DNA from: Planctomycetota bacterium
GTDB lineage: Bacteria; Planctomycetota; Planctomycetia; Pirellulales; Lacipirellulaceae
Length of the DNA stretch: 36,128 bases
Direction of reading: 5' to 3'
Assembly: GCA_024276705.1 (NCBI GenBank)
Contig: JAJRWS010000696.1
Span: forward strand, 1 to 36,128
The notes below the pieces were generated by a model. The model worked only from the letters and a program-made list of their open reading frames with translations. It was not told the DNA's origin and ran no database searches. Positions 3,747 to 26,238 of this stretch are shown in pieces. How positions within the stretch are numbered: position 1 is the stretch's first letter; each line of letters begins with the position of its first letter. The position numbers were made by a program, and so were the translations under genes.

Positions 3747-4397
3747 GTGAAACGCTTATTTCGAGTGATTACATGTCGGCCCCATGAATCGAGTCTGGCC
3801 CAAATGTTGCGAGACGACCTGGCTGCCGCCCGAAAGGCATGGCTGAACGAGGCCAAAAGTGATCCCGAGGAGCGTTTGCGGCGTGAGCAGGGCGATTTCC
3901 TTGCCGCCACGAACCACGAAGGCGAACGGTTTGATTTCCACTCCCTCCGGCATACGTGTGGGGCATGGCTGGCGATGGCGGGAGAGCACCCCAAGGTGAT
4001 TCAAACTCTCATGCGGCATTCGAGCATCACGTTGACGATGGATACCTACGGCCATCTCTTCCCAGGGCAGGAGGCGGACGCAGTCGACCGATTGAGGGAT
4101 TGGATGGCCGGCGACCGGCCCGAGGCGTTGCAAGCGACCGGAACCGACAATCGAGCCATTCTGGACGAGGAACGTCCCCGGCGCGCAGCGCATATGCAGC
4201 GAGCAGGACGCGAAACGGGGCAAAATGGTGCGAGGCGTTGCGAAGAGAATTCAAACGCCGTGGCGAAAAGGAAATCGCCTAAGTCCTTGCAAATTGCGGA
4301 CTTAGGCGATTGCTTGCAAGACGATGCGACACTATTCAATAGTAGCGGAGGAGGGACTCGAACCCCCGACACGCGGATTATGATTCCGCTGCTCTAA
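3747..4397 (+). pseudogene. Tyrosine recombinase (phage-type integrase), C-terminal fragment only
   Basis: FDFHSLRHTCGAWLAMAGEHPKVIQTLMRHSSITLTMDTYGHL carries the HxxR and catalytic Tyr boxes. The N-terminal SAM-like domain and the first catalytic Arg box are absent. The ORF tail runs into the tRNA and is probably not meaningful. Confidence 0.7.
4273..4311. repeat. Perfect 14-bp inverted repeat (hairpin) between the integrase catalytic region and the tRNA
   Basis: aatcgcctaagtcc-ttgcaaattgc-ggacttaggcgatt. There is no U-tract, so its function (terminator, att-related or other) is unknown. Confidence 0.5.
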
Positions 4398-4416
4398 CCA
4401 ACTGAGCTACTCCGCC
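4343..4416 (-). tRNA. tRNA-Met: tRNA with CAT anticodon (elongator Met, or Ile2 if lysidine-modified)
   Basis: Reverse complement GGCGGAG-TA-GCTC-AGTTGGTTA-GAGC-A-GCGGA-ATCATAA-TCCGC-GTGTC-GGGGG-TTCGAGT-CCCTC-CTCCGCT-A folds as a cloverleaf by hand. No encoded CCA. Confidence 0.9.
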
Positions 4417-6036: not shown

Positions 6037-6769
6037 GGATAGTTCCTGGTGTTCCGAAGAGGATTGGTGACGATAGTAGTTCTGTTGCCATCTGAGTCAT
6101 CACGAGTGGCGCTGAGGGATTTGGCCTGACGACGCGCCCGGCAACCTGGTCTAGCCCCAAGGTGCCAAAGCCATTGACGATGCAGCTCGGTGCGAGCAAA
6201 CAACGGCAGGACAGTCCTCCCGTTACGTGGAGTTTTCCGCGCGCTGGTCGCGGTATCGGAATGCATTGAGGATCGGACACTTTTTCGGTATTCCTGGAAG
6301 CGAATAGGAAGGAAGGCAATCATGCCACATCGAATCTGGAAGCACCAATGTACGGGCGAGAAACATTTCGTAAGACGGGGCCGTGAGCAGTGCGATACAT
6401 GCGGGGCGATCGGGCAATATGATTGTTGGGGCTACAGCATGGTTGAGGCGATGGGCGCTCATCGTACTGGAAAATATGCAATGTCCCCATGACTGGCCAC
6501 ATTTTGGGTGCCCCCAGCCCTTGGCTCATACAAATCGGTTGGTACGCCGACGGTTACCCTTCTCCTTTCGGTAAGAGACCATGCTCGGAAATGCGGACGA
6601 TCCCAGGAAAGCTAATAGGCCACTCTACGACACCAACCGCTAAAGCCCCACAGGGTCTTCTAGATATTTCTCTCCAATTTATCAAGCAAACTCCAGAGGC
6701 CTGAATGGTAGTTCCCTTCTGACATCGCCCCGGAACGATACTGCTTATGCAGTCTTTCAATCGCTCTTA

Positions 6770-7529: not shown

Positions 7530-7917
7530 GTCGCAGCCCCTTTTTTTACTGGCGGGAGAGAAGTCTTGTGATTGGCTGGCAGTACATTCTTCTAGACTAC
7601 CACGCATTTGCCGTGCCACATGGACCGCGACTGCAAATCAAGCTCTATTCACTCGTGCCTGGGTTAAGAAGTGCCGTCATTTGGCGCACAAGTGTAGTCA
7701 GTTTGACGAGTATTTTGTGCATGGAACGCTGCGGTTCCACATCTTACAGTAAAAGAGGCAATTCCCCCGTCGCTGGCTACATTTTGGGTACCAAGCACTC
7801 GCCACATATAAATCGTTTAGGACGTTCAACTTGATTGCAAACTGAAACGGCCCAGCAAGATGCCAGGCCGTGTTGAGTCGTCCAGTTCGGTTGCAATGCT
7901 ACGCCCCGAAGGGGAAG

Positions 7918-8223
7918 TCACATGCTAGATGTTGGTGAACCTGACGAATGATCTTTGACGTCCCATCCATGGTCTACGTACATTTTTACATGAGCTGGAA
8001 CGTATTTTATGGAATCGAGCTTATCGGCCCCCAGGTGAACATAAAATGATGAATCTTTCAAATTGTACGATACGGAATAGGGCTTCCTTGGGGTATGCCA
8101 AACCGGGTGATCGAACTCGATGTCCGTAGTGGGAGCGAATGGAAGCTCGACTTGAAGTTCAGCGGATCCTTGGCCCTCATCGTCTGGTGATAAAAAATCG
8201 ACGTGAAAAATTACGTTGTGCAT
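7918..8223 (-). CDS. Hypothetical protein (about 101 aa)
   Basis: The ATG at 8223 is preceded by AGAGG. MHNVIFHVDFLSPDDEGQGSAELQVELPF.. The upstream part of the longer ORF overlaps the previous gene and looks non-coding. Confidence 0.45.
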   Translation of the reverse strand: MHNVIFHVDFLSPDDEGQGSAELQVELPFAPTTDIEFDHPVWHTPRKPYSVSYNLKDSSFYVHLGADKLDSIKYVPAHVKMYVDHGWDVKDHSSGSPTSSM

Positions 8224-8311
8224 TGTGTACCTCTGAGCGGAAATAGGACTATCAAAACACAGGACATCTGGGGGGGATTCGGGCCGATGAAGGCATTGGT
8301 TCAACGCAAAC

Positions 8312-9178
8312 TCATTTCCCGCTGATTTTTTCGGTCGCACGTATGAATTCGGGAACTTCGGCGTGTACATCGTTGAGGCCAGTGACGTATTGGAGATCAT
8401 TCATCGTTTTCTCGGTCTCCAGCATGCTGAGAGATACCTGGTCGATCTGATCAGAAATATACTCAGGCTCTTGACGATTGACGGCCAATTCGGCGAGGGA
8501 TTTAATTTTGTTTTCCAGTCGGTCGAGTTCCAGTTCGACATATTGCAGATTGGCTTGGGCACGTTGGTAGTTGTCGATTCGCCCCTCGGTGGTCCGCAAG
8601 TTATCCTCCAGGGTGCGGCGAATTTTTTCCTGGTGCGGCGAGAGTTTCTTTTCCGCAAATTTGGCAAGCTGACCTTGGAGCTTTTGTTGTTTGTGTTGCA
8701 TCTTCTCCAATGAAGTGTTCCTCAGAAATCGCTCGATCGAGTACTGAGTGAACAGCAACCGGAGAAATACCCACAGGAGTCGATCAAGGCCCTCGCGTTG
8801 TAGAGAGTCGAAGGAGGAATTGGCGCCGTCCTCTTTGTGCCGGTTCAAGTCGGCGGCGATTTCGCGTAGTTCCTGACATTGCCCGCGCAAGCGAGAAAAA
8901 CGCTGGTGAAGTCGTTTTGGCAGCGATCGCCAAATTTTATTGAGTGCTTGTTTACTCTGCTTCTTTGTCGTTTGCCGCTGCCCCTCGTTTTCCATCACGT
9001 CAATATAATTTTGAAAACGAGGATGGGTCCCTACAAAGCCCAAGTAAGCGGTTTCTCCCGCCATCACAAGCGCTACGCCTACGTCTGCCTGTCCGCTCAG
9101 CGCGGCAAAGCCGATCCCAGCGGCCACGCAGAGGAGGTTCCAAGGATTCAAAAAGGCTGCTTTGATGTACTTGATCAC
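8312..9178 (-). CDS. Membrane protein with two N-terminal TM helices and a long coiled-coil region, function unknown
   Basis: 288-aa ORF with a GTG start. LLCVAAGIGFAALSG / VGVALVMAGETAYLGFV are followed by heptad-rich sequence (QQKLQGQLAKFAEKK..LELDRLENKIKSLAELA). Confidence 0.7.
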   Translation of the reverse strand: MIKYIKAAFLNPWNLLCVAAGIGFAALSGQADVGVALVMAGETAYLGFVGTHPRFQNYIDVMENEGQRQTTKKQSKQALNKIWRSLPKRLHQRFSRLRGQCQELREIAADLNRHKEDGANSSFDSLQREGLDRLLWVFLRLLFTQYSIERFLRNTSLEKMQHKQQKLQGQLAKFAEKKLSPHQEKIRRTLEDNLRTTEGRIDNYQRAQANLQYVELELDRLENKIKSLAELAVNRQEPEYISDQIDQVSLSMLETEKTMNDLQYVTGLNDVHAEVPEFIRATEKISGK

Positions 9179-9258
9179 GTTCTCTACTAGTTGCGTTTAG
9201 CGGTTCGAGTTGATTTTCTGTTGGCTTCTGACCCATGCATTTGCAATAATCGGGCTGA

Positions 9259-9372
9259 TTCAATACTTCCAAATTGCCACTGGGCCTTACGTGGGCCAGG
9301 GCGATAAGCCGCCCGGGAACCGACGTTTTTATCTGCTAGCACGTTGCCCGGGTCGGCTTCATCGGCCATTTC
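9259..9372 (-). repeat. Interspersed hairpin repeat family C, copy 1 (reverse orientation)
   Basis: The reverse complement matches gttccaagaatggccgatgaagccgacccgggcaa..cggtttccgggcggcttatcgcc..tttggaagtactgaa. It abuts the ABC ATPase stop codon. Confidence 0.8.
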
Positions 9373-10295
9373 TACTTATGGTGATTCTCATTCTTTGCTT
9401 CGAGCGCCGAAATCAAGTCGCGTATGTGGTACACGGTTTCCTGGAATCGCGATTCGCGCTGCATTTCTTGTGCGGGACGGTCCGGAGGCTCAACCTCCAT
9501 CTCTTCCAGCAGTCTGCCTGGGGAATTGCTGAGAATATAGACTCGATCGCCCAGGTAAACCGCTTCTTCGATCGAATGCGTTACAAAAAAGACGGTCGCT
9601 TCGACTTCTCTCCAAAGAGAGACTAATAGGTCCTGCATGTTGAATCGCGTGTGGGGATCCAGGGCTCCAAACGGCTCATCCATCAAGATAATTCTCGGAC
9701 TTAGAATCAGGGTGCGGGCAATCGCCACCCGCTGCCGCATGCCGCCGGAGAGCTCATGAGGATACTTTGAATCGTCGTTTGCCACGCTAAGGCCAACTCG
9801 CTCGATCCAGTCGCGTCCCAACTCGTATCGTTCTTGCCGCGGCATGCCTAAACATTCCAGCCCAAAGCATACATTATCAAGAACGGAGCGGTGATCGAAG
9901 CTCGTGTAATCTTGAAATACCATTCCACGGTCGGCAGCGGGACCTGTTACTTGCTCTTCTAGCACCACGATTTTACCCGTTGTCGGTGGATGTTGCGGTT
10001 CGAGTCCGGCAATCAGACGTAAGATGGTGCTTTTTCCACAACCACTGGGCCCCAAGATGCAAATACATTCGCCTTTGTTGGGAAGGTCTTTGACTGTGAA
10101 GCTGACATTCTGAATCGCGGTAAAAGCATTTCGCTTGCCAGCATTGTAAGTTTTCGTAACTTCTTGAAATTCAACAACATGTTTTCCAGGAACCGACTCG
10201 GGCTCTTGGTCATGCTGAAGAACATGCCCGAGGCCAACGTTTTCCGCAGTGTCAACTGCCGGCGTGTCAGGAGTAAGATTGGTCGATTCGCTCAT
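9372..10295 (-). CDS. ABC transporter ATP-binding protein, NitT/TauT (nitrate/sulfonate/bicarbonate) type
   Basis: Walker A GPSGCGKST, signature LSGGMRQRVAIARTL, Walker B IILMDEPFGALD. Its ATGA overlaps the permease stop. Confidence 0.95.
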   Translation of the reverse strand: MSESTNLTPDTPAVDTAENVGLGHVLQHDQEPESVPGKHVVEFQEVTKTYNAGKRNAFTAIQNVSFTVKDLPNKGECICILGPSGCGKSTILRLIAGLEPQHPPTTGKIVVLEEQVTGPAADRGMVFQDYTSFDHRSVLDNVCFGLECLGMPRQERYELGRDWIERVGLSVANDDSKYPHELSGGMRQRVAIARTLILSPRIILMDEPFGALDPHTRFNMQDLLVSLWREVEATVFFVTHSIEEAVYLGDRVYILSNSPGRLLEEMEVEPPDRPAQEMQRESRFQETVYHIRDLISALEAKNENHHK

Positions 10296-11269
10296 CGTTT
10301 GGATCGAAACTTCTCAAGCTGAGTGTTGCGTCGAAAGAAAAGCCCCTTCGCATCCTCCCATTGGTGAACGACGGCTCGCATCAAACGATGGAAGATGCCG
10401 GCACTACCGTAACGGTAAGGAAACAACTCTCGCTGGATCCAAAACAAGATACGATCGACGGCTAATGCAATGACTGGAATGATCAGGATGATCAGATAGA
10501 TGTGCTCGCGAGGGCCCCGTTTTTGCGAGACATTGATTAAGTTTCCCAAACCGCCTTCTTCACTACCGAAGCGGATTAACTCTGCCAGCATGATGTAGCC
10601 AAAGGCTAAGCCAAACAATAGTCGGGCGGAGTTGAAAATCGCAGGCATCGCGAGCGGCACCAGAACTTTCATGATTACTTGCCAGCGGTTGGCTCCCAGG
10701 GTGTAGGCCGTGTCGATATACCGTGAACTTACATCAGCGATCGAGTCGGCCGCATCCGCCAGAATGAAAGCCGCCGTGGCAATGAAGATGAACATTACCT
10801 TCTGCGTTTCACCAATACCGAAGAAAAAGAAAGTGAGCGGGATCAACGCCGCGAGCGGAATGTTACGCCCAAATAGGATCAAAGGGGATAAAAATGCTTT
10901 GATGGGAGCAAAACAACCGGCCAATACTCCCAGTGGTACGCCGATCGCAAGCGCCAAAGCAAATCCCAAAGCCACTCGGCGCAAAGTAACCCACGTATTG
11001 CGAGTCAACGCACGATCGAACCACAGCGAGTGAAAGCTGGCGAAAGTTTCCGAGGGACTTGGCAGCGCGGTAGGGCTAATGATGCGATCTTCAGCTTGCT
11101 CGCCGTTGGTAAAAAACCACCACAAGCCGAAACAAATGGCGAGACATGTTACACTCAGAAAAAAACCGAGCCAGGGGTTGATTGGCGCACGAATCCTGAG
11201 CCACTTTTGCGTAAGTGGTGTCGATGGCGGAATTGTTTCTTTAGCCGGATCGACCATCGTTGTGTGCAC
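10292..11269 (-). CDS. ABC transporter permease, NitT/TauT family
   Basis: Multi-TM protein with the BPD_transp_1-like EAA region (DTAYTLGANRWQVIMKVLVPLAMPAI). GTG start at 11269; an alternative ATG lies at 11257. Confidence 0.9.
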   Translation of the reverse strand: MHTTMVDPAKETIPPSTPLTQKWLRIRAPINPWLGFFLSVTCLAICFGLWWFFTNGEQAEDRIISPTALPSPSETFASFHSLWFDRALTRNTWVTLRRVALGFALALAIGVPLGVLAGCFAPIKAFLSPLILFGRNIPLAALIPLTFFFFGIGETQKVMFIFIATAAFILADAADSIADVSSRYIDTAYTLGANRWQVIMKVLVPLAMPAIFNSARLLFGLAFGYIMLAELIRFGSEEGGLGNLINVSQKRGPREHIYLIILIIPVIALAVDRILFWIQRELFPYRYGSAGIFHRLMRAVVHQWEDAKGLFFRRNTQLEKFRSKR

Positions 11270-11271
11270 GA

Positions 11272-13017
11272 TTAAGGTTGCGCTTCGGCAGGGTAGACTT
11301 TGATTTCAACTCGTCGGTTTTGAGCGTGGTTCAAGGGGTCCTCGCTGTTGGCCGGCCTGGCCCAACCGATACCGTCGACGTTTAACTGGTTGGGATCAAG
11401 ATTGTATTTTTCCACCAAAGCTTGCTTCACGGCACCTGCCCGATTTCCAGAGAGCTCCTTCACAAGAGATTCCGGCACGGATCCTTTCATCGAAGAGTCG
11501 GTGTGACCTTCGATGATGATGCGTGCCGTGCCAAACTGCCCAGCAAGCTTTGCGATTTCTTCCAACACGTTTTGGACGTTGGGATCGTAAAGTACGCCGA
11601 TCTCTTTGCCGTCTTCGCTTTTAGTGATCATTTTCTCCAGTTCCCAACTATTGGGATAGAAGTGAATCACCACCGTATTGGTGAGAATTTCTTCCGCACC
11701 ACGGACTTCCGTGGTCGACTTGGGGACGAAGCTTACCGTGTATTCGTTCTCTTGCGAAGAATATTTTTCTTCTCGGCCAAGTTTTTCAATCACTGAAAAA
11801 TCAACCACTTGATCGAAAGGAACCCGTTGGTGGCTGACCTTATTAATGCGCGAATAAAGATAGTAGGCCTGGTTCCATACACGCTCAAAGTTGGTCGGGT
11901 TATTTTTATTCAGGAAGAACTGGTAGTTCTCAGCCCAGTTCGTACTGTGGGCGTCCGCCAGCATGCTGAGCGTCTCACCCGCGGGGATGTTGTAGCCTGC
12001 TGCCATGAGCTCCGCCACCTCTTGCTTGCTGCTGTCCTTTTTCAGGTCGACCATTGCATCGAAGATGCCGCGAACCAGGCCTTCGATGATTCCCGGATGG
12101 TCCTCCGCAAAATCAGCACGCGCAAACCACACATCGGCAATCAGCTTGTTTGCGGTAGTCGTGTCGACCAACATCTTATTGCCTTGCACTTCGGATAGCG
12201 TATAAATGTCGGGGGCCCAAGACACGGCAGCCGCCATTTCGTGTTGAGAGTTGAACGCTGCCGCAGCCTGGAATGCATCGCTGGTAAAGACCATGTTGAC
12301 TTCACTTGGTTGGACGCCTGCCGCTACAAGCATATTGAGCAGGAAGTATTGTGAGGGGGAATTTTCAGCCAATACGACCGTCTGGCCGCGCAAATCCCGT
12401 ACCGTGTCGATGCGATTGCGAGCCACGATGCCGTCTCCACCATTCGACCAGTCGACCTGCTGGTAAATGCGCGGCATGACGCTGCTATCACGTGGGCGAC
12501 CCGAGCGGTCGACAAAGCCTTCCAGCAAGAGGGGCACCATGTCGAGCGTGGCCCAACCGATGTGTATTTCGCCGGCGGCATACGCATCGCGCATTTGCAC
12601 CGGGTCGTCGATCAATACCAGTTCCACCTTAAACTCCTGGCCGTCGGGAGTCCGCCATACTTTGTCGGCACGGAAACCGCTGTTGGCATAAATGATTGGC
12701 GACCAGCCAGCCCACACATTGAGTGCGAACTTCACGGTATTATCTTCCATTTGCGAATAAGCCGCGGTGCCCTTGACTTCAGGCAGACGCTCCGAAGGCT
12801 TAAACGTGTATTCTTTCACCGTAGTGATGCCAGCCGTGTCTGGAGCTTCCGCTGCGTCTTGATCGCCCAAACCGAGCTGGCCGGGGTCGATCTTTTGAGC
12901 GACGTCCTTAGCTCCTTTGGGAGCAAGGAGGTCGCTGCGGAAGACGGCAAAAGCCACCAAAGCCGCAATAACACCCAGGACGGCTAGATAGAAAACAGGA
13001 GTCGGCTTACCAGGCAT
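11272..13017 (-). CDS. Membrane-anchored NMT1/TauA-like substrate-binding protein fused to a C-terminal OmpA-like peptidoglycan-binding domain
   Basis: N-terminal TM (VFYLAVLGVIAALVAFAVF), a periplasmic binding-protein-like core, and the C-terminus IIIEGHTDSS..LSGNRAGAVKQALVEKY..NRRVEIKVY (OmpA_C motif). Confidence 0.85.
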   Translation of the reverse strand: MPGKPTPVFYLAVLGVIAALVAFAVFRSDLLAPKGAKDVAQKIDPGQLGLGDQDAAEAPDTAGITTVKEYTFKPSERLPEVKGTAAYSQMEDNTVKFALNVWAGWSPIIYANSGFRADKVWRTPDGQEFKVELVLIDDPVQMRDAYAAGEIHIGWATLDMVPLLLEGFVDRSGRPRDSSVMPRIYQQVDWSNGGDGIVARNRIDTVRDLRGQTVVLAENSPSQYFLLNMLVAAGVQPSEVNMVFTSDAFQAAAAFNSQHEMAAAVSWAPDIYTLSEVQGNKMLVDTTTANKLIADVWFARADFAEDHPGIIEGLVRGIFDAMVDLKKDSSKQEVAELMAAGYNIPAGETLSMLADAHSTNWAENYQFFLNKNNPTNFERVWNQAYYLYSRINKVSHQRVPFDQVVDFSVIEKLGREEKYSSQENEYTVSFVPKSTTEVRGAEEILTNTVVIHFYPNSWELEKMITKSEDGKEIGVLYDPNVQNVLEEIAKLAGQFGTARIIIEGHTDSSMKGSVPESLVKELSGNRAGAVKQALVEKYNLDPNQLNVDGIGWARPANSEDPLNHAQNRRVEIKVYPAEAQP

Positions 13018-13050: not shown

Positions 13051-13170
13051 GTTCCAAGAATGGCCGATGAAGCCGACCCGGGCAATGTGCTAGTGGTTAA
13101 AAACGTCGGTTTCCGGGCGGCTTATCGCCCTGCCCCACGTAGGGCAAAGCGGAAATTTGGAAGTACTGAA
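13051..13170 (+). repeat. Interspersed hairpin repeat family C, copy 2
   Basis: gttccaagaatggccgatgaagccgacccgggcaatgtgc..cggtttccgggcggcttatcgccc..ggaaatttggaagtactgaa, 34 nt upstream of the binding-protein start. Confidence 0.8.
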
Positions 13171-13210
13171 ACAATGTTTGTTAGGCGAGAGGCTTAGCTC
13201 TCCCGAATAT

Positions 13211-13501
13211 TTAACCGCGAAACTGAACTTTAGGCCGTTCTTCCATCATCGACTGCAGTACCTGCATGTAGTTGAATGCCGATAACTCGCATAGCAGGTC
13301 GGTGATTTTCTCATGCAAAGTATCGTCAAGTTGAGGCTCGATTTCCTTCATCAACTGAACCACTCGTTTTTCCTGCGACGACAGCTCCCCTTGGTCGATC
13401 CTGCCGTCGGCCATTGCTTCGACAAACGGAACAAGTTGTTTCGCATAGTCGTCGATTTTGGTGCTTTCGGCTTTTTCATCAAGCCAACCCTTGCGTGCCA
13501 T
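13211..13501 (-). CDS. 96-aa all-helical acidic protein, third gene of the PspA-AAA+ operon
   Basis: A perfect AAGGAG lies 7 nt upstream of the ATG, 27 nt after the AAA+ stop. VEAMADGRIDQGELSSQEKRVVQLM resembles an EF-hand/TerB-like ADGxIDxxE motif (weak). Confidence 0.75.
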   Translation of the reverse strand: MARKGWLDEKAESTKIDDYAKQLVPFVEAMADGRIDQGELSSQEKRVVQLMKEIEPQLDDTLHEKITDLLCELSAFNYMQVLQSMMEERPKVQFRG

Positions 13502-13528
13502 ACGAGTACTCCTTAGTTTGTTCAGGCT

Positions 13529-15358
13529 CTAAGTATCCAGTATTTGCTTCATCCTTGCCAGACGTTGGCGGAGTTGTCCGACTCCTTCGGGCTTGTCGAT
13601 ACGCTCAATCCATTCGGCTGGCAAGAAGTTGCGGTCGGTGCATTCCAGTACGGCGGCCACTTCTTGCATCTCTTTTTCAATGCCCTGTGCCGAGGGAATA
13701 AACATCGCAATCGCAGTATTTAAATCGTCGGACTCGACGCTTTCACGCCCCTCGGACAATACCGAACGACGAGCGGAAAGCAAGATGCTCTCGACATCCG
13801 CACCGCTCAATTTCTTTCCTTGAAATTCCTTGGGGATAGCATCATCGGCCAGTGGTATTTTGTTTTTCTTCGCCATGACCTCAAACATCTTGGTGAGCTC
13901 TTCGGCATCTTCCGGGTAGAACAAGGGGATATGCACTTCGGCCCGGCCTTGACGTTTGAGATCGATCGGCAATAAATCGGGGCGGCTAGTGAGTAACATC
14001 CAGACGATGCGTCCGCGGTATTTTGTGTCGCCCATTTGGCTGGCAATCATGGAAAATATGCGTGATGACGTTCCCGAGTCGCCATCGCTCTGGCGATTGC
14101 CCAAAGCAGCGTCCGCTTCGTCGATGATAACCACGACAGGACCGAGAGAGCGCAGGACGGTGAGGACTTGCTGCAGATTGCCCTCCGTCTCACCCACATA
14201 TTTTGAACGGAAATTACTGAGGGTTACGCAGGGAATCCCAATCGATCCGGCATAACATTCCGCGAGAAACGTTTTTCCCGTGCCCACCGGCCCGCATACC
14301 AGGTAGCCCATGGGCGAAACATCGAGACGCCCGCGACTCATCCAGGCGGCGTCCTGGCGGAGTCGTTCTTTCGCCGCTTCATGGCCGACAACCATGTCGA
14401 GGGTATGGCTGGGTTCGACAAAATTGACCAACGACTGGCAACGTCGTTCGATCATCGATTTCTTGAGCCGGCGAAAACGCGACTCGTCGAGCTGAATCTC
14501 GCCCTCTTTGGCACGTGACAGGGCAAAGCTGAGATCAATCAGGTTCAAGCCACTCGACAGCCTGGCCAGGCCTTCATGGCTGAGACCGGCGAGGGCGGAT
14601 TTTTCCGTGCTGGGCACCTGAGATTCGAGATACTCGCGACGTGTGTTTTCGTCGGGAAGTGGGATTTCGATCGTCGCCACGTGTGGGTTCTGCACGAGTC
14701 GGTCGTTGACTTCCCCCAAACGGTCCGCCAGCAGGCAAAATGCCATGTTCACGCGTTTGATGTACGGATTCTGTGCCCAAGAAAGCAAACGGACCAAACG
14801 CGACGCATCTCCGCGCGCCAGTGCCGAAAGATCACCCGCAGGAATCAGGTACTGAGCGTAGTGAAACAGGAACGCCATGCGACTCCGGTCGGCGGCATCC
14901 CCTTCCAGCAAGTTGCGTTGGATCGAGCGGTCGAGCAATGACAAGACTTTGTCCGAATCGCGTGGCCACGTGGCGGGGTTCCCCATCGAACCCGAGACGC
15001 TCCCCACCATCTGCTGGAGGCGAGCGGAGTCCGCCCCCCCCTCAAGCCGCAATCCCCGGCCAAGATCATACGAGAGGACAACTTCCCAAGAACCAAATAA
15101 ATGCTGTGCTAAAAACTCGGCTAACGTGCAATACTCGATGTTGTCGCCCTTCTTAATCGGGACCAGATCGTGAACGTTGCCATGCACGACAAACAGACAA
15201 GTGCTGCCACTGAAGTAAAGAGCGGCGAGTTCCTTAGCCCACGCGGGAAACCAAGCGGGCACCGCCTGGCCGCTGTCCAAAAGATCGCTCAAGCCATCGT
15301 ATCCTGGGGGATCCCCAGCGGAGGGATCGTTGCTCGAATTGGCGGCTCTGGCTGGCAC
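13529..15358 (-). CDS. AAA+ ATPase, classic clade, with a ~330-aa N-terminal region of unknown type
   Basis: Walker A GPVGTGKT, Walker B VVVIIDEAD, SRH-like TSRPDLLPIDLKRQGRAEVHIPL. GTG start 3 nt after the pspA stop. No GAFTGA loop or C-terminal HTH, so it is not PspF-like. Confidence 0.9.
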   Translation of the reverse strand: MPARAANSSNDPSAGDPPGYDGLSDLLDSGQAVPAWFPAWAKELAALYFSGSTCLFVVHGNVHDLVPIKKGDNIEYCTLAEFLAQHLFGSWEVVLSYDLGRGLRLEGGADSARLQQMVGSVSGSMGNPATWPRDSDKVLSLLDRSIQRNLLEGDAADRSRMAFLFHYAQYLIPAGDLSALARGDASRLVRLLSWAQNPYIKRVNMAFCLLADRLGEVNDRLVQNPHVATIEIPLPDENTRREYLESQVPSTEKSALAGLSHEGLARLSSGLNLIDLSFALSRAKEGEIQLDESRFRRLKKSMIERRCQSLVNFVEPSHTLDMVVGHEAAKERLRQDAAWMSRGRLDVSPMGYLVCGPVGTGKTFLAECYAGSIGIPCVTLSNFRSKYVGETEGNLQQVLTVLRSLGPVVVIIDEADAALGNRQSDGDSGTSSRIFSMIASQMGDTKYRGRIVWMLLTSRPDLLPIDLKRQGRAEVHIPLFYPEDAEELTKMFEVMAKKNKIPLADDAIPKEFQGKKLSGADVESILLSARRSVLSEGRESVESDDLNTAIAMFIPSAQGIEKEMQEVAAVLECTDRNFLPAEWIERIDKPEGVGQLRQRLARMKQILDT

Positions 15359-15361
15359 GGA

Positions 15362-16120
15362 CTAAGACCCTTGTTCGGTTATTTCTTGCTTGCTGGAAGG
15401 ACCCAGTTGTTTGACTCCGTCCTCGACCCCAGCAGTTTCAGGTGTCACCAAACCCATTTGTATTTCGAATTCACGCAGCGCATCGTCGGCCAATACGGCT
15501 TCCATGGCATCCTCTCGTTCAATATCCTCGATGCCTTCTTCGGAGAGGTCGGAGCTTACTCTCACTTTGGCACGGTTGAGCCCAATTTTATCTTGAATGA
15601 CTTGCTCGATTTGGCCAAAGTCGGTGGTTACGTCAAACTCGAAGCTTCTGGCCAACTCCGCCATCTCCGCTTCGGCACGGCTCATTTTTAACTCGGCATC
15701 GTACCTGGCAATTTTGTCGCGAATCTTGGCCAGTTTCTTACTCGCGTGTTTGATTTTCCGCACGTTGTTTTCGTACGAATTTTCGTGCATTTCAAGTTGC
15801 GTCTGATTCTCAGCCAACTCATTTTTTGACTTTTGCAGTTCCAAAGCGAACTTCGCGGCGGTTTCTCGATCACCGGCTTGCAGATAAGCTTTTACTTTGG
15901 CTGCGAGCTTGTTGACACGCTTTTTGTCGCCCGCAACCTGACGCAGTACGCGCTCAACTAAAGCACGATATTGTTCAAGACCTTGTCGCCCCGTTTTCAT
16001 TTCTTCCACGGCCGAATCGTACTCATATTGCATCTGAGCAATAGGATCGGCAGTCCAGAAGTAATTTGCCAGCTTGTTCAGCTGTGCTCGAAAGGAACGC
16101 CAAAGCTTGCCGATGATCAT
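15362..16120 (-). CDS. pspA: PspA/IM30/Vipp1-family protein (bacterial ESCRT-III superfamily)
   Basis: The internal ATG at 16120 is preceded by GGAGAG. MIIGKLWRSFRAQLNKLANYFWTADPIAQMQYEYDSAVEEMK.. has the typical PspA N-terminus and coiled-coil hairpin. A ~60-aa acidic C-terminal extension follows. The upstream part of the 326-aa ORF looks non-coding. Confidence 0.85.
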   Translation of the reverse strand: MIIGKLWRSFRAQLNKLANYFWTADPIAQMQYEYDSAVEEMKTGRQGLEQYRALVERVLRQVAGDKKRVNKLAAKVKAYLQAGDRETAAKFALELQKSKNELAENQTQLEMHENSYENNVRKIKHASKKLAKIRDKIARYDAELKMSRAEAEMAELARSFEFDVTTDFGQIEQVIQDKIGLNRAKVRVSSDLSEEGIEDIEREDAMEAVLADDALREFEIQMGLVTPETAGVEDGVKQLGPSSKQEITEQGS

Positions 16121-16820: not shown

Positions 16821-17082
16821 ATGAAGACGGCAAAAGTGGTTGCGCTTTTATCGTTGATGTTCTGCTACACGTCGTCCGCTCGCGGGCAGATGCTTGAGTG
16901 GATCCGGCAACTCGGCACCAGCGACCGCGACTCGAGCTATGGCGTATCGGCGGATGGGCTGGGGAGTGTCTACATCTCGGGCAGTACCAGAGCCGACGGC
17001 AGGGCTTCTGCTGATAATAGGAATGGTGGCAATGTTTTTCCAGCGTGCAGGTGACACTTTTCACTGTAAGGATGGCCAATGA
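16821..17082 (+). pseudogene. Mini PEP-CTERM protein (signal peptide plus one SBBP-like repeat plus PEP-CTERM) with an apparent 1-nt frameshift near 16990
   Basis: Frame 0: MKTAKVVALLSLMFCYTSSARGQMLEWIRQLGTSDRDSSYGVSADGLGSVYISG. Frame +1 continues VPEPTAGLLLIIGMVAMFFQRAG.. Its TGA (17080-17082) overlaps the esterase ATG (17079) as ATGA. Confidence 0.5.
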
Positions 17083-18185
17083 TGAGAATGTTTTTTCTGC
17101 TTGTTGCGTTGATTGCATTGGTACACTACGGACCGCAGTCGAATGCTCAGCCGTTTACGGAACTGATCGTCTTCGGAGATAGCCACTCCGATACGGGCAA
17201 CTGGGCTCCAGACGGCCACTGGGGGCTTGACCCAGCATATTTGGTGGGAAGATTTTCCAATGGCCCGAACTGGGTGGAAGAACTTGCCGTGCAATTGGGA
17301 CTACCCTTGCCCGCACCAAGTGAAGCAAGTGGCTTGAACTATGCTTGGGGGGGAGCACGGACGGGTGCAGGATTCGATAGGTCTGGAGGAATGTCGTTTC
17401 CCAAGGTTGGAACACAGGTCCGCCAATACCTCAGCAGACATGTCCCTGATGGTAATGAACTGGTGACGCTATTTCCTGGCCACAATGATTTCGGCTGGGG
17501 TGGTGAGATAAACGCTTCAATTCCAGCATTGAACATAGGGGATCATATTACCGCCCTAGCGACAGCAGGAATAAACCACTTTCTCGTCCCGAATCTACAT
17601 CCGCTCGGGCATTTGCCCGAGTATCGGGGAACTAGTCGCGAAGCCACATTATATGCATTGACGGCGGATTTCAATGAGATCCTGTCGGCAGAGATTGGAA
17701 GACTTGAAGAGGACCTTGGGGTAACAATTTTTCAGTACGATTTGTTCAGTTTTGTGCAAGGCGCAATTGAAGATCCCGCATCTTTAGGCCTTGTCAATGT
17801 GACGGACCCTGCGTTTTCTAATGGGGCCGCAGTGCCTAACCCGGATGAATATCTCTATTGGGACAATAACCATTTTACAACCTCGTTCTACGCGATGATG
17901 GGCCAACAAGCTGCAGCCGTCGTTGTGCCTGAACCATCGACCTATCTTCTGTGCATCTTCGGCATAGTCGTATTTGGACTGGGCAGATTAAGGAGTCGGC
18001 ATTTCTGCCCAAGAATGGCGCGCACCTTCATTGGGTATGAGCGAACTACTTTGCATAGAGTCCCTCCCACAAGCACGCCTTCATTGCCGGGTGAAACAAT
18101 TCCTGAACCCTCGGCAATTGCTCTTGCTGCCTTGGGGCTGATTTGCATTACGGAGATGTTGAAGTTTCGAATCCCTACAATCTGA
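17079..18185 (+). CDS. GDSL/SGNH-family esterase/lipase with PEP-CTERM anchor(s)
   Basis: Signal peptide, block I FGDSHSDTGN, block V YLYWDNNHFT, then VPEPSTYLLCIFGIVVFGLGRLRSR. A second IPEPSAIALAALGLICI segment lies 45 aa later. Confidence 0.9.
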   Translation: MMRMFFLLVALIALVHYGPQSNAQPFTELIVFGDSHSDTGNWAPDGHWGLDPAYLVGRFSNGPNWVEELAVQLGLPLPAPSEASGLNYAWGGARTGAGFDRSGGMSFPKVGTQVRQYLSRHVPDGNELVTLFPGHNDFGWGGEINASIPALNIGDHITALATAGINHFLVPNLHPLGHLPEYRGTSREATLYALTADFNEILSAEIGRLEEDLGVTIFQYDLFSFVQGAIEDPASLGLVNVTDPAFSNGAAVPNPDEYLYWDNNHFTTSFYAMMGQQAAAVVVPEPSTYLLCIFGIVVFGLGRLRSRHFCPRMARTFIGYERTTLHRVPPTSTPSLPGETIPEPSAIALAALGLICITEMLKFRIPTI

Positions 18186-18381: not shown

Positions 18382-20364
18382 ATGCACGGAAGCTTGAAGA
18401 TAGCAGTGCTGGCATGTGGACTGGTTGTCTGGCCCGCCTCCGCTTATGCGCAAACCCTCAAATTGAGTTCCACGCCGTTGCCGGCTGGGGCAGATGTCCT
18501 CGACTTCCAACTCAGCCGCGACGGTGCCCTCGTTGTCTATCGGGGCGACCTGGAAACAGACGGAGTCATCGACCTGTTCAGCACCTCGACATCCGGAGGA
18601 GGAGCACAACTCAAATTAAACGGTGGGGCATTGTTGGATGGAGATGTTTTTTCCGACTACCACCTCAATGCTGACGGCAGTCGAGTCGTTTACCGGGGTG
18701 ATTTAGTCATCGAGGATGTCGCCGATCTCTACAGCGCATCCACCGTCGCCAGTGGGACACAGATAAGGCTGAGCTTTACATCCACGGCCGGAGGCGATGT
18801 GTTCCCCGGCTATCAACTTACCGGCGACGGCAACCGGGTTGTCTACCGGGGCGACCTGGTAACCAACAGTGTGTCCGAACTCTATAGCGCGTCTACGGTT
18901 GCGAGCGGAACACAAGTCGTGTTGAGTTCCACCTCCTTGCCGGGAGCGGATGTCTTCTCCGATTACCAAATTTCATTCCCCGGTCTGGTCACCTATCGGG
19001 GCGACCTGACCGTCGATGGTGTCTCCTCGCTCTATGGTGCCTACTCGACCGTGGGTGGCTCGCAGATCGGCCTGAGTTTTTCGACATTGGTCAGGGCGGA
19101 TGTCTTCGATTACCAGTTGACCCCTGAAGGCAACCGTGCCGTCTACCGGGGCGACCTGGCGACAGACGGCCGTACCTCGCTTTATAGTGCCGCCACGTTT
19201 GTCAGTGGCTCGCAAATCGGTTTGAGTTTTACGACGTTGGCCGGGGCGGATGTCTCCGACTACCAATTGACTCCCGACGGTAGTCGTGTCGTTTACCGGG
19301 GCGACCTGGTGACGGATGGTTCGTTGGCGCTCTACAGTTCTTCCACGTTTTTTGGTGGAACGCAGATTCCTTTGAGCTCTACGACGTTGGCTGGAGCGGA
19401 TGTTTTCGATTACCAAATCACACCCGATGGCAGCCATGTTGTCTACCGGGGCGACCTGGTGGCGGATGGTGTTTCCGCCCTCTATAGTGTTTCCACGACT
19501 GCCAGTGGCACGCAGCTTGACTTGAGTTCCGCCACGCTGGCGAGAGCGAATGTCTCCGCCGATTATAAGCTTCTGCCTGATAGCAGTCGGGTTGTCTACC
19601 GAGGCGCCTTGTCTCAGGAAAATGTGGTCGAGCTCTACAGCGCTTCCACGACTGCCAGCGGAGCGCAGATCGGCCTCAGTTCTACTTCGCTGGCCGAGGC
19701 TGCCGTTTTTGATTTTCAGCTCACGCCCGATGGAAACCACGCTATCTACCGTGGCGATTTGTCCACAAGCAACCTGGTCGAGCTCTACAGCGCGGCTACG
19801 GATGCCGTTGGCACGCAAGTCAAGCTGAATAACTCTCTCTCTGCTGTGGACGACTGGATCGGTAATATTCAAATCAGTGACGATGGCCAGTCCCTTGCCT
19901 TCATGGTGGGAACCACGACCGATCCGCTGGATGAAACTAAATTTACCGGCAAGGAACTCTTTTGGACGCCGATCACCGGCGGTGGTGCAACTTCGGTTGC
20001 CATTGCAAACACGGAAATCACTTCCTATCAGTTCAACGGTGACACCCTCATTTTTGCAGGGGACCTCGACACCCCTGGGATGACCGAGTTGTACCACTTC
20101 GTCTGGTTTTCCGGAAACTATGACGAGGACCGAGACGTGGATGGGGCCGACTTCCTCAAGTGGCAACGGGGCGAGTCACCCACTCCGCTGAGCCAATCGG
20201 ACCTTGCTGCATGGCAAGGGGATTTTGGCTCAACGCCCAGCCCGACGACGATTGCTTTGCAGGCGGTTCCAGAGCCGAGCTGCTGGATGATGCTATGGCT
20301 GGCAGCTTTTACGTGCAGCTGGCAGCGGCGTTGGGTGTCGCCACTGTCAACAGACCGGCGTTAG
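18382..20364 (+). CDS. Secreted PD40/TolB-like beta-propeller repeat protein with a dockerin-like module and PEP-CTERM anchor
   Basis: Signal peptide MHGSLKIAVLACGLVVWPASAYA. Nine or more ~50-aa repeats (DYQLTPDGSRVVYRGDLVTDGVSELYSAST). C-terminus DVDGADFLKWQRGESPTPLSQSDLAAWQGDFG followed by VPEPSCWMMLWLAAF..RRW. Confidence 0.9.
   Translation: MHGSLKIAVLACGLVVWPASAYAQTLKLSSTPLPAGADVLDFQLSRDGALVVYRGDLETDGVIDLFSTSTSGGGAQLKLNGGALLDGDVFSDYHLNADGSRVVYRGDLVIEDVADLYSASTVASGTQIRLSFTSTAGGDVFPGYQLTGDGNRVVYRGDLVTNSVSELYSASTVASGTQVVLSSTSLPGADVFSDYQISFPGLVTYRGDLTVDGVSSLYGAYSTVGGSQIGLSFSTLVRADVFDYQLTPEGNRAVYRGDLATDGRTSLYSAATFVSGSQIGLSFTTLAGADVSDYQLTPDGSRVVYRGDLVTDGSLALYSSSTFFGGTQIPLSSTTLAGADVFDYQITPDGSHVVYRGDLVADGVSALYSVSTTASGTQLDLSSATLARANVSADYKLLPDSSRVVYRGALSQENVVELYSASTTASGAQIGLSSTSLAEAAVFDFQLTPDGNHAIYRGDLSTSNLVELYSAATDAVGTQVKLNNSLSAVDDWIGNIQISDDGQSLAFMVGTTTDPLDETKFTGKELFWTPITGGGATSVAIANTEITSYQFNGDTLIFAGDLDTPGMTELYHFVWFSGNYDEDRDVDGADFLKWQRGESPTPLSQSDLAAWQGDFGSTPSPTTIALQAVPEPSCWMMLWLAAFTCSWQRRWVSPLSTDRR
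18535..19800 (+). repeat. Intragenic tandem repeat, 9 units of 150-153 bp
   Basis: The core gtctaccggggcgacctgg recurs at 18535, 18688, 18841, 18991, 19141, 19291, 19441, 19594 and 19744. Confidence 0.85.
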
Positions 20365-26128: not shown

Positions 26129-26238
26129 GTTCCAAGAATGGCCGATGAAGCCGACCCGGGCAACGTGCAAACTGCCAAAAATACCGGTTTCCGGGCGGCT
26201 TATCGCCTTGTCCTACGTGGCAATTTGGAAGTACTGAA
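26129..26238 (+). repeat. Interspersed hairpin repeat family C, copy 3
   Basis: gttccaagaatggccgatgaagccgacccgggcaacgtgc..ccggtttccgggcggcttatcgcc..caatttggaagtactgaa, 65 nt upstream of the 26064 start. Confidence 0.8.

Follow-up and report, generated by a model that had tools for sequence, protein, structure and literature searches.

The locus that we analysed appears to be the planctomycete member of a widespread bacterial envelope module, so far described only computationally, in which an AAA+ ATPase would remodel the membrane-repair protein PspA; we favour this reading tentatively and give it slightly less than an even chance. In archaea and eukaryotes, Vps4 extracts subunits from ESCRT-III polymers and reshapes them. 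According to a 2025 review, a Vps4-like ATPase appears to be absent from bacteria, and the PspA-linked ATPase is a good candidate for this missing counterpart. Within the window (the whole analysed stretch of 36,128 nt), three co-directional genes on the minus strand encode a PspA/IM30-family protein of 252 aa (15362..16120), an AAA+ ATPase of 609 aa (13529..15358) and an acidic helical protein of 96 aa (pI 4.75; 13211..13501). All statements that the original prediction made on the sequence of these genes proved accurate. Read on the minus strand, the pspA stop codon TAG occupies 15364-15362 and the GTG start codon of the ATPase gene 15358-15356, leaving a gap of 3 nt, and behind the TAG of the ATPase gene (13531-13529) the claimed 27-nt spacer with AAGGAG (13528-13502) leads to the ATG of the 96-aa gene at 13501.

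The proposed three-gene module has to be widened: the trio is indeed conserved as a unit, but the full module comprises seven genes, the further four (8312-13017) encoding a PBP-OmpA fusion, an ABC permease, an ABC ATPase and a helical protein of 288 aa with a hydrophobic N-terminus, all on the minus strand. The fusion protein (581 aa; 11272..13017) combines a membrane-anchored NMT1/SsuA-like binding protein (Pfam NMT1, E=2.7e-7; hydrophobic segment at residues 3-33) with a C-terminal OmpA-like peptidoglycan-binding domain (Pfam OmpA, E=1.7e-11); its best NCBIfam match, a urea-type/SsuA/taurine binding protein, is below the cut-off. The permease gene (325 aa; 10292..11269; BPD_transp_1, E=9e-17) starts 2 nt past the PBP-OmpA gene and overlaps by 4 nt with the gene of the ATP-binding protein, which is of the taurine/nitrate/sulfonate type (307 aa; 9372..10295; ABC_tran, E=5e-27; NCBIfam TauB-like with 208 bits, under the cut-off). 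The 288-aa protein (8312..9178) is basic (pI 9.07) and all-helical in its AF2 model (pLDDT 73), with two moderately hydrophobic N-terminal helices (residues 12-28 and 31-50), whose hydropathy stays under a strict TM threshold, followed by long coiled-coil helices. It has no match in Pfam or NCBIfam, and no similarity to ESCRT-III (Snf7) was detected in its sequence or fold. The gene calls of the source record agree on the lengths of 252, 609, 96 and 288 aa. Intergenic distances are 3 and 27 nt inside the trio and 2 and -4 nt among the transporter genes. Co-transcription of the genes is plausible, but a single transcript is not assured, because two gaps of 193 nt divide the cluster into three blocks.

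To assess the linkage we surveyed the neighbourhoods of 82 related genome loci, counting the assessable subset for each gene pair. The ATPase gene is followed immediately by the 96-aa gene in 65 of 68 loci and preceded immediately by pspA in 63 of 74, with pspA at another position in 5 further loci; the members of the proposed trio thus do co-occur. As this order is kept while the flanking genes differ, the linkage of the three genes is not due to chance. The 288-aa gene is kept at the same position in 44/83 loci, and the full seven-gene order was found in 19 of the 38 loci with at least 6.5 kb on each side. Acidobacteriota carry a permuted order (PspA>PBP-OmpA>permease>ABC>288-aa>ATPase>96-aa), and in a clade with only 36-51% identity PspA_IM30 proteins and the 288-aa family again cluster with the ATPase. 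Relatives occur in the genomes of at least 555 species.

The original prediction had held the arrangement to be experimentally uncharacterised in Planctomycetes. Indeed, no experimental work was found in the literature, but the gene set has been described computationally: Ravi et al. (mSystems 2024, PMC11237479) reported PspA alongside a protein of the type 'inactive classical AAA + classical AAA', a set to which they add an ABC ATPase, a permease, a PBPB+OmpA protein and a membrane-anchored helical protein, and from this gene context they draw the same inference. Their examples are AEY64321.1/AEY64320.1 (Clostridium) and OGG56892.1 (Ca. Handelsmanbacteria). Judged from the published description, the gene content of their operons equals that of the window, both in the core (a PspA gene beside one for a protein with two AAA domains, of which the N-terminal one is inactive) and in the extended form with its four further, conserved genes. 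The Handelsmanbacteria order is the one that we found in Acidobacteriota, whereas in the window and in most Planctomycetota the ATPase follows right after PspA and the transporter comes later. By position, the 288-aa gene corresponds to their 'SIG+TM+Snf7' gene, although the label 'divergent Snf7' was not reproduced. A further likeness, again by description only, is to archaeal ESCRT loci of the Halo_adaptin type, where an MIT-less Vps4-like ATPase with a Cdc48-type N-domain follows a PspA-like gene; the related Meth_adaptin loci include a gene for the solute-binding protein ProX (Makarova et al., mBio 2024, PMC10936438). Unlike the window, the Halo_adaptin loci are archaeal, their ATPase has another N-domain and their accessory genes are different ones (wH proteins, adaptin-like).

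The motifs claimed for the ATPase are all present, namely GPVGTGKT (356-363), VVVIIDEAD and the SRH-like TSRPDLLPIDLKRQGRAEVHIPL, and with an aromatic pore loop 1 and two SRH arginines they make up the full catalytic set of a classic-clade AAA+ protein. PF00004 matches residues 353-478 only (E=8.4e-24), inside an active classical AAA module that extends over residues ~311-560 (13679..14428). Walker A (G356-T363; nt 14270-14293), the pore loop K386-E390 (K-Y-V-G-E; nt 14189-14203), Walker B (D413-E414) and the arginines R469 and R472 are invariant among 40 homologues, and the ATPases of the clade with 36-51% identity retain an aromatic pore loop (KWVG). Thus a remodelling or disassembly enzyme would fit, since pore loop, Walker A/B and both SRH arginines of a classic-clade AAA+ protein are invariant. 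The 'single AAA module' of the original prediction stands for the sequence motifs, but not for the architecture: residues ~30-300 (14459..15271) are modelled as a second, degenerate AAA-like domain, with a beta-alpha core followed by a four-helix lid (AF2; mean pLDDT 82.3 and pTM 0.77 for the whole protein). This domain opens with the family motif PxW(F/Y)PxWAxELAxLYFSG and carries FVVHGNVHD at the P-loop position and AFLFHYAQY at the Walker B position. None of 35 full-length family representatives has a Walker A in the N-domain; 33 of them have a single one, at ~305-404, and the other two gave no match, while in three family members with N-terminal extensions of ~250 aa it lies at 604, 572 and 568. 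The N-domain family comprises 1290 representative clusters at E<=1e-3, and hhalign detected no sequence similarity between D1 and D2. Going by these residues, the first AAA domain appears to be catalytically dead and the second a complete classical unfoldase module. A C-terminal helical extension (residues 553-609; 13532..13702) is conserved as well and contains the invariant block F553 P555 S556 Q558 G559 E561 K562 E563 ... E572 C573 T574. The start of the protein is uncertain: the source record uses the GTG, a TTG 22 or 26 codons further on could serve instead, the annotated lengths of cluster mates are 587 and 583 aa, and residues 1-29 are unconserved with pLDDT <50.

The 'Vps4-like' label fails as far as the build of the enzyme is concerned, which is tandem instead: neither Pfam nor NCBIfam finds an MIT domain, the N-terminal 300 residues being modelled as AAA-like domain plus lid, and Pfam finds no Vps4_C. 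NCBIfam scores are 75 bits for PAN, 73 for CDC48, 58 for FtsH and 43.5 for CdvC; membership of the CDC48 equivalog (cut-off 803) and of CdvC (cut-off 650) was rejected. Whole-chain Foldseek matches of the AF2 model are p97/Cdc48, Rix7/NVL, Drg1 and Msm0858 (E~1e-17 to 1e-18), with alignments to tandem AAA proteins spanning 550-630 columns at a TM of up to 0.52, so that the predicted structure has two AAA folds in tandem. Likewise, a phmmer search against PDB gave NVL (5.7e-35), AFG2 (2e-34), VAT (7e-34) and p97 (about 1e-33), and the best 60 sequence matches are exclusively NVL, AFG2, p97, VAT and Rix7. With these type II classical AAA+ proteins (Cdc48/p97/VAT, NVL/Rix7, AFG2/Drg1, Msm0858) the ATPase shares the tandem layout and the aromatic pore loop. 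In contrast to them, its D1 lacks Walker A/B (HGNVHD, FHYAQY), it has no double-psi-barrel N-domain, its chain starts with the family-specific W-rich motif, and it carries a conserved C-terminal block of its own. What it has in common with Vps4/CdvC is the classic-clade AAA+ module with a threading pore loop, the location of its gene beside one of the ESCRT-III superfamily whose product bears a conserved acidic C-terminal tail, and the proposed ATP-driven extraction of subunits; it differs by the absence of MIT, beta-domain and Vps4_C, by the dead D1 in tandem, by a sequence nearer to Cdc48/PAN and by a partner of the PspA rather than the Snf7 type. The canonical proteobacterial psp operon (PspF-PspABC) also pairs PspA with an AAA+ protein. 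However, as originally stated, the ATPase is not PspF: Pfam and NCBIfam show no sigma-54 domain or HTH, GAFTGA is missing, and the window has no PspB or PspC.

PspA was correctly assigned to the PspA/IM30 family of the ESCRT-III superfamily, with a match to PF04012 above the curated threshold over the helical-hairpin core (residues 2-211 of 252; E=3.9e-12, 46.7 bits, cut-off 33.9). Its homologues are 245-253 aa long (70 loci), with a column identity of 73% on average (32 homologues). The N-terminal segment MIIGKLWRSFRAQLNKLANYFWTAD (residues 1-25; pI 10.3) is basic and strongly conserved, and its sequence resembles that of a helix 0. Regarding the acidic C-terminal extension, for which ~60 aa had been proposed, residues 190-252 are indeed acidic (18 D/E versus 4 K/R), but the true extension is only ~30 aa long, because the Pfam domain reaches residue 211 and the piece 'ALREFEIQMGL' looks like the usual end of a PspA domain. 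The tail (residues 224-252; 15365..15451) contains the motif K237-Q-L-G-P241 (nt 15398-15412), in which K237, L239 and G240 do not vary among 32 homologues. ATPase-linked PspA_IM30 proteins of distant clades (61-114 bits; Pfam E 1e-17 to 1e-32) are included in this conservation: even in deeply divergent clades they retain K-[QST]-[LIV]-G ~12 residues before the C-terminus, and the motif may serve as a recognition site.

This conserved tail motif is newly seen, and so is the near-obligate 96-aa partner of the ATPase, which might act as its cofactor or adaptor. An alignment of 35 homologues of the 96-aa protein shows A-D32-G33-x-V-x-x-x-E39 as a motif, and at the C-terminus F-(R/Q)-G is conserved. 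No match was found in Pfam, NCBIfam or among PDB sequences; its 232 database relatives are, where named, called 'hypothetical protein' and in one case 'predicted transcriptional regulator'. A TerB protein (PF05099, 30-41 bits, cut-off 24.4) occupies the position of the 96-aa gene in 8 distant loci. The 96-aa family itself does not match TerB even at E<=10, has a single ADGxVxxxE motif versus the paired aDGxxxxxE, and in hhalign gives a probability of 4.5% (E=0.009) against those TerB proteins.

In the mechanism that we propose, PspA would polymerise on the stressed cytoplasmic membrane via its basic N-terminal helix. The ATPase would form hexamers, the dead D1 ring and the N-terminal motif serving as a docking platform, and together with the 96-aa cofactor it would engage the exposed, conserved acidic tail of PspA, its presumed substrate. 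KYVGE pore loops could then thread PspA and extract subunits, so that the polymer is turned over or reshaped; the ATPase, of another build than Vps4, would thus perform the task that Vps4 has with ESCRT-III. The 288-aa protein is probably a membrane tether of the machinery or else a second substrate, and the transporter may couple the response to some solute in the periplasm or to the layer of peptidoglycan. In favour of PspA remodelling we counted the conserved linkage, the invariant catalytic residues, the kinship with unfoldases, the PspA tail motif and the tight gene spacing. Counted against it were the absence from the ATPase of an MIT-like domain, the kind known to recognise the tails of ESCRT-III proteins, the composition of the distant loci given below, the 193-nt gaps, and the report that PspA binds and hydrolyses nucleotide itself and needs no partner ATPase to remodel membranes (PMC11746142).

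The ATPase might instead be a quality-control or extraction machine for membrane proteins, similar to Cdc48, Msp1 or FtsH. It would act on the 288-aa protein, on subunits of the transporter or on other proteins of the envelope, and PspA would then only seal or stabilise the membrane without being unfolded. The nearest folds, Cdc48-type segregases, would suit such a role, and the ABC, permease and PBP-OmpA genes accompany the set. In distant clades the 288-aa gene, not pspA, is the commonest neighbour of the ATPase gene (21 versus 15 of 33 loci with long flanks) and lies immediately upstream of it in 24/57 loci; 12 of the 33 have no detectable PspA or 288-aa partner. In planctomycetes, however, the immediate neighbour is pspA, with gaps down to 1-4 nt, Fuerstiella and Isosphaeraceae have trio-only loci without the 288-aa and transporter genes nearby, and the PspA tail motif is retained wherever the ATPase is linked. 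We regard an extraction machine of this kind as rather unlikely. By analogy with the psp operon, PspA could also inhibit the ATPase until membrane stress recruits PspA, whereupon the freed ATPase and the 96-aa protein would act on other targets. The inhibitory pairing of PspA and PspF is established, E. coli PspA binding the AAA+ domain of PspF (PMC7619361), and pspA and the ATPase gene are closely linked here too. Yet the ATPase belongs to another AAA+ clade and has none of the sigma-54 activator features, no output target is evident, and the conserved unstructured tail of PspA resembles a handle more than an inhibitor surface. We consider this regulation improbable.

The cluster could go further than PspA remodelling and represent a true bacterial ESCRT-like machine, in which PspA and the 288-aa protein, possibly a very divergent second ESCRT-III-like subunit, form a composite membrane polymer that the dead-D1, Cdc48-derived ATPase remodels for scission or invagination. 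FtsZ is missing from many Planctomycetota, whose membranes form elaborate invaginations, and a Cdc48-to-Vps4 transition has been proposed for archaea. We consider such a machine very unlikely; if it did exist, it could contribute to the budding division of planctomycetes or to the shaping of their endomembranes, and the ATPase would either parallel that transition in bacteria or be left over from it. That the adjacency of pspA and the ATPase gene is functionally meaningless, or part of an anti-phage defence system or mobile cassette, is barely credible. PADLOC gives weak matches of the ATPase to IetA (58 bits), of PspA to JetC and of the OmpA part to ZorB, but these reflect generic AAA, coiled-coil and OmpA similarity. 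The persistence of the linkage across phyla and in two gene orders largely refutes this reading, and the inverted repeat of ~115 nt around the transporter genes, which might suggest mobility, is specific to this genome and has no copy in 162 related loci. In related loci the two gaps show no similarity to each other (0/18). In the window the repeat flanks the transporter genes on both sides, and a third copy lies at 26137-26238.

Reading the minus strand together with the ORF table, we found pspA at 16120–15362 (stop codon TAG at 15364–15362), an ATPase gene with a GTG start at 15358–13529 and, behind a 27-nt spacer carrying AAGGAG, the gene of a 96-aa protein at 13501–13211, which confirms the three-gene arrangement of the original prediction. 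The gene calls of the source record give proteins of 252, 609 and 96 aa; where the ATPase begins is uncertain, since sister sequences are called 22–26 codons shorter and residues 1–29 are unconserved. In the Pfam search, PspA_IM30 was assigned to the PspA protein above threshold (E = 3.9e-12), one AAA domain to the ATPase (residues 353–478) and no domain to the 96-aa protein. The predicted ATPase motifs were found, and GAFTGA is absent as claimed. The predicted gene set, however, was incomplete: four further genes continue the trio on the same strand, encoding a 581-aa protein (PBP-OmpA; 11272–13017) that carries a membrane anchor at the N-terminus, an NMT1/SsuA-type binding domain and, C-terminally, an OmpA domain, as well as an ABC permease (10292–11269), an ABC ATPase (9372–10295) and an all-helical protein of 288 aa whose N-terminus is hydrophobic (8312–9178). 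Novipirellula aureliae has a relative of the 288-aa protein. Intergenic gaps along the seven-gene cluster are 3, 27, 193, 2, −4 and 193 nt. Promoter and terminator scans of the region performed no better than on shuffles and are thus uninformative on co-transcription. A 160-aa ORF (7918–8400, minus strand) shares 89 nt with the 3' end of the 288-aa gene; related loci contain no homologue of it and Pfam assigns it no domain, so it is unlikely to be a real gene. The region's strongest terminator-like hairpin (11 pairs; 7847–7871, minus strand) follows just 3' of this ORF.

The AF2 model of the ATPase (40 homologues; pLDDT 82, pTM 0.77) consists of two alpha/beta-plus-lid units, and in Foldseek the whole chain aligns with p97/Cdc48, Rix7/NVL, Drg1/AFG2 and Msm0858 over 550–630 columns (E~1e-17 to 1e-18). 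The N-terminal unit carries HGNVHD at the P-loop position and FHYAQY at the Walker B position; among 35 full-length family representatives Walker A occurs only in the second unit (no match in two). In the second unit Walker A and B, the pore loop K-Y-V-G-E and two SRH arginines are all invariant across 40 homologues, and its nearest sequences are NVL, AFG2, p97 and VAT (E 1e-35 to 1e-33). Comparison of the N-terminal domain with the protein's own C-terminal AAA module by hhalign gave no similarity; the label 'dead' AAA domain is therefore based on the AF2 model, Foldseek matches and published work. As modelled, the ATPase is Cdc48-like, its first AAA domain being dead and its N-terminus carrying a family-specific motif, PxWxPxWAxELxxLYxxG; the family of this N-terminal domain comprises ~1,290 representative clusters. 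The original prediction had placed the enzyme close to Vps4. This assignment was wrong: because fold and sequence match tandem-AAA proteins, the NCBIfam scores for PAN (75 bits) and CDC48 (73) are well over that for CdvC (43.5), and Pfam and NCBIfam profiles find neither an MIT domain nor Vps4_C, the ATPase is outside the Vps4 family, though it may work in a Vps4-like manner. Past the AAA lid, residues 553–583 (13610–13702) form a block that 40 homologues share with little or no change (F-I-P-S-A-Q-G-x-E-K-E-x-Q-E-x-x-A-V-L-E-C-T) and that may serve contacts between subunits or the docking of a cofactor.

The arrangement had already been described computationally. Ravi et al. (mSystems 2024; preprint 2020; PMC11237479) reported that bacterial PspA co-occurs with a protein of two AAA+ domains, the N-terminal copy of which is inactive, and that in longer operons the pair is joined by an ABC ATPase, a permease, a PBPB+OmpA protein and a 'divergent Snf7' protein anchored in the membrane; their inference is that membranes are remodelled in an ATP-dependent way. 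The gene order of their Handelsmanbacteria operon is the same as the Acidobacteriota order found here. Our locus very probably belongs to this system. In line with the original prediction, our literature search found no experimental study of the PspA–ATPase system. The locus adds a planctomycete member to a kind already known but untouched by experiment. According to a 2025 review (PMC7619361), a Vps4-like ATPase appears to be absent from bacteria; in the structural PspA papers, PspF or chaperones are the only candidate remodellers considered.

Full-length relatives of the ATPase number in the thousands (60–80% identity, mostly Planctomycetota). Scanning one genome per species, we found a relative in at least 555 species genomes; among the matches listed, most are Planctomycetota and some are Acidobacteriota, Gemmatimonadota and others. 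Isolate genomes carry ATPase relatives as well, among them that of Singulisphaera sp. PoT, a complete chromosome. When all seven window proteins were placed on 83 loci, the 96-aa gene lay directly 3' of the ATPase gene in 65 of the 68 assessable loci, and PspA directly upstream of the ATPase in 63 of 74 (in 5 others it lies at a different position of the locus). Among the 38 loci with long flanks, 19 show the full window order and 6, from Fuerstiella and Isosphaeraceae, the trio only; three loci are ordered PspA>PBP-OmpA>permease>ABC>288-aa>ATPase>96-aa. The genes flanking the cluster vary from locus to locus. Metagenomes searched with family members 30–48% identical to one another as seeds yielded 80 further loci. 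In these distant loci a member of the 288-aa family is the next gene upstream of the ATPase in 24 of 57, the upstream flank includes Pfam-confirmed PspA_IM30 proteins in 15 of 33, and about one third of the ATPase loci are orphans.

The 96-aa protein is acidic and helical, with a conserved ADGxVxxxE motif in the homologue alignment, and has no family match in Pfam, NCBIfam or the PDB. Its C-terminus (13211–13222) ends in a conserved P-K-T-x-F-(R/Q)-G; judged from the sequence, conservation at the extreme end suggests a docking peptide. In eight distant loci (L110, L113, L116, L118, L133, L135, L140 and L151) the ORF directly after the ATPase gene encodes instead a TerB-domain protein of 142–164 aa, with PF05099 above threshold in every one scanned (six of the eight). 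Similarity between the two families is not significant (hhalign probability 4.5%), and the relationship to TerB is therefore only a lead; our literature search found no mention of an ATPase–TerB pairing. The PspA tail carries a K-[QST]-[LIV]-G motif ~12 residues before the C-terminus, which is kept in ATPase-linked PspAs with little other sequence in common and is a candidate recognition handle.

These data bear on the disassembly or reshaping of bacterial ESCRT-III polymers (PspA, Vipp1). The best-supported reading, which we hold tentatively, is that a hexameric unfoldase with the 96-aa protein as cofactor would pull PspA subunits out via their conserved tail; the 288-aa protein could tether the machinery to the membrane or be a co-substrate, and the transporter could connect it with periplasm and cell wall. 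Of the original interpretation, which is partly supported, the functional idea stands; the family assignment was wrong and the gene set incomplete. It is less likely that the ATPase pulls proteins out of the membrane and PspA meanwhile seals it, and rather improbable that PspA would, by analogy with PspF, regulate the ATPase. Preserved in at least 555 species genomes, the PspA-linked, pore-loop-competent Cdc48-like ATPase is a concrete, testable candidate for the missing bacterial Vps4-like activity; the system offers a defined small putative cofactor and, in the PspA tail, a conserved motif open to mutation. Active remodelling of bacterial ESCRT-III polymers becomes directly testable through this locus. 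If confirmed, the reading would mean that bacteria acquired or retained ATP-driven ESCRT-III remodelling by means of an enzyme of different build, and would tie this remodelling to solute transport and the cell wall.

That the adjacency is meaningless, or reflects a defence or mobile cassette, is very improbable. Anti-phage defence was rejected, as PADLOC matches only generic AAA, coiled-coil and OmpA proteins. A mobile cassette might be read from two inverted copies of a ~115-nt dispersed intergenic repeat (13059–13173 and, inverted, 9256–9370), which occupy both 193-nt gaps bracketing the ABC-transporter genes. A third copy, however, lies elsewhere in the window (26137–26238; identities 89% and 79%), none occurs in any of 162 related loci, and such an inverted repeat between the gaps is found in 0 of 18 related loci. 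We therefore also rejected it as an invertible or regulatory element of the cluster; missing from all 162 loci, it looks like a genome-specific REP/MITE-like element.

Elsewhere in the window, a GDSL lipase with a PEP-CTERM sorting signal (Pfam; 17079–18185, plus strand) is followed by a 660-aa protein (18382–20364, plus strand) that is built of ~45-residue repeats, with a PEP-CTERM-like end and no Pfam match. ARAGORN and Rfam agree on a tRNA-Met (CAT) gene at 4342–4416 (minus strand). A SAM-I/IV riboswitch match at 6092–6213 (plus strand) scores just above the Rfam gathering score (43.6 vs 41.1 bits, E = 5e-4); this stretch holds only short overlapping mechanical ORFs (50–103 aa) on both strands, none of them conserved or annotated here. 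Finally, positions 1–2000 may be foreign DNA, given their lower G/C content (0.44–0.47 vs 0.50–0.64 elsewhere) and the genes of a DUF6932 protein (338–895) and a Cro/C1-type HTH protein (1046–1513) encoded there.
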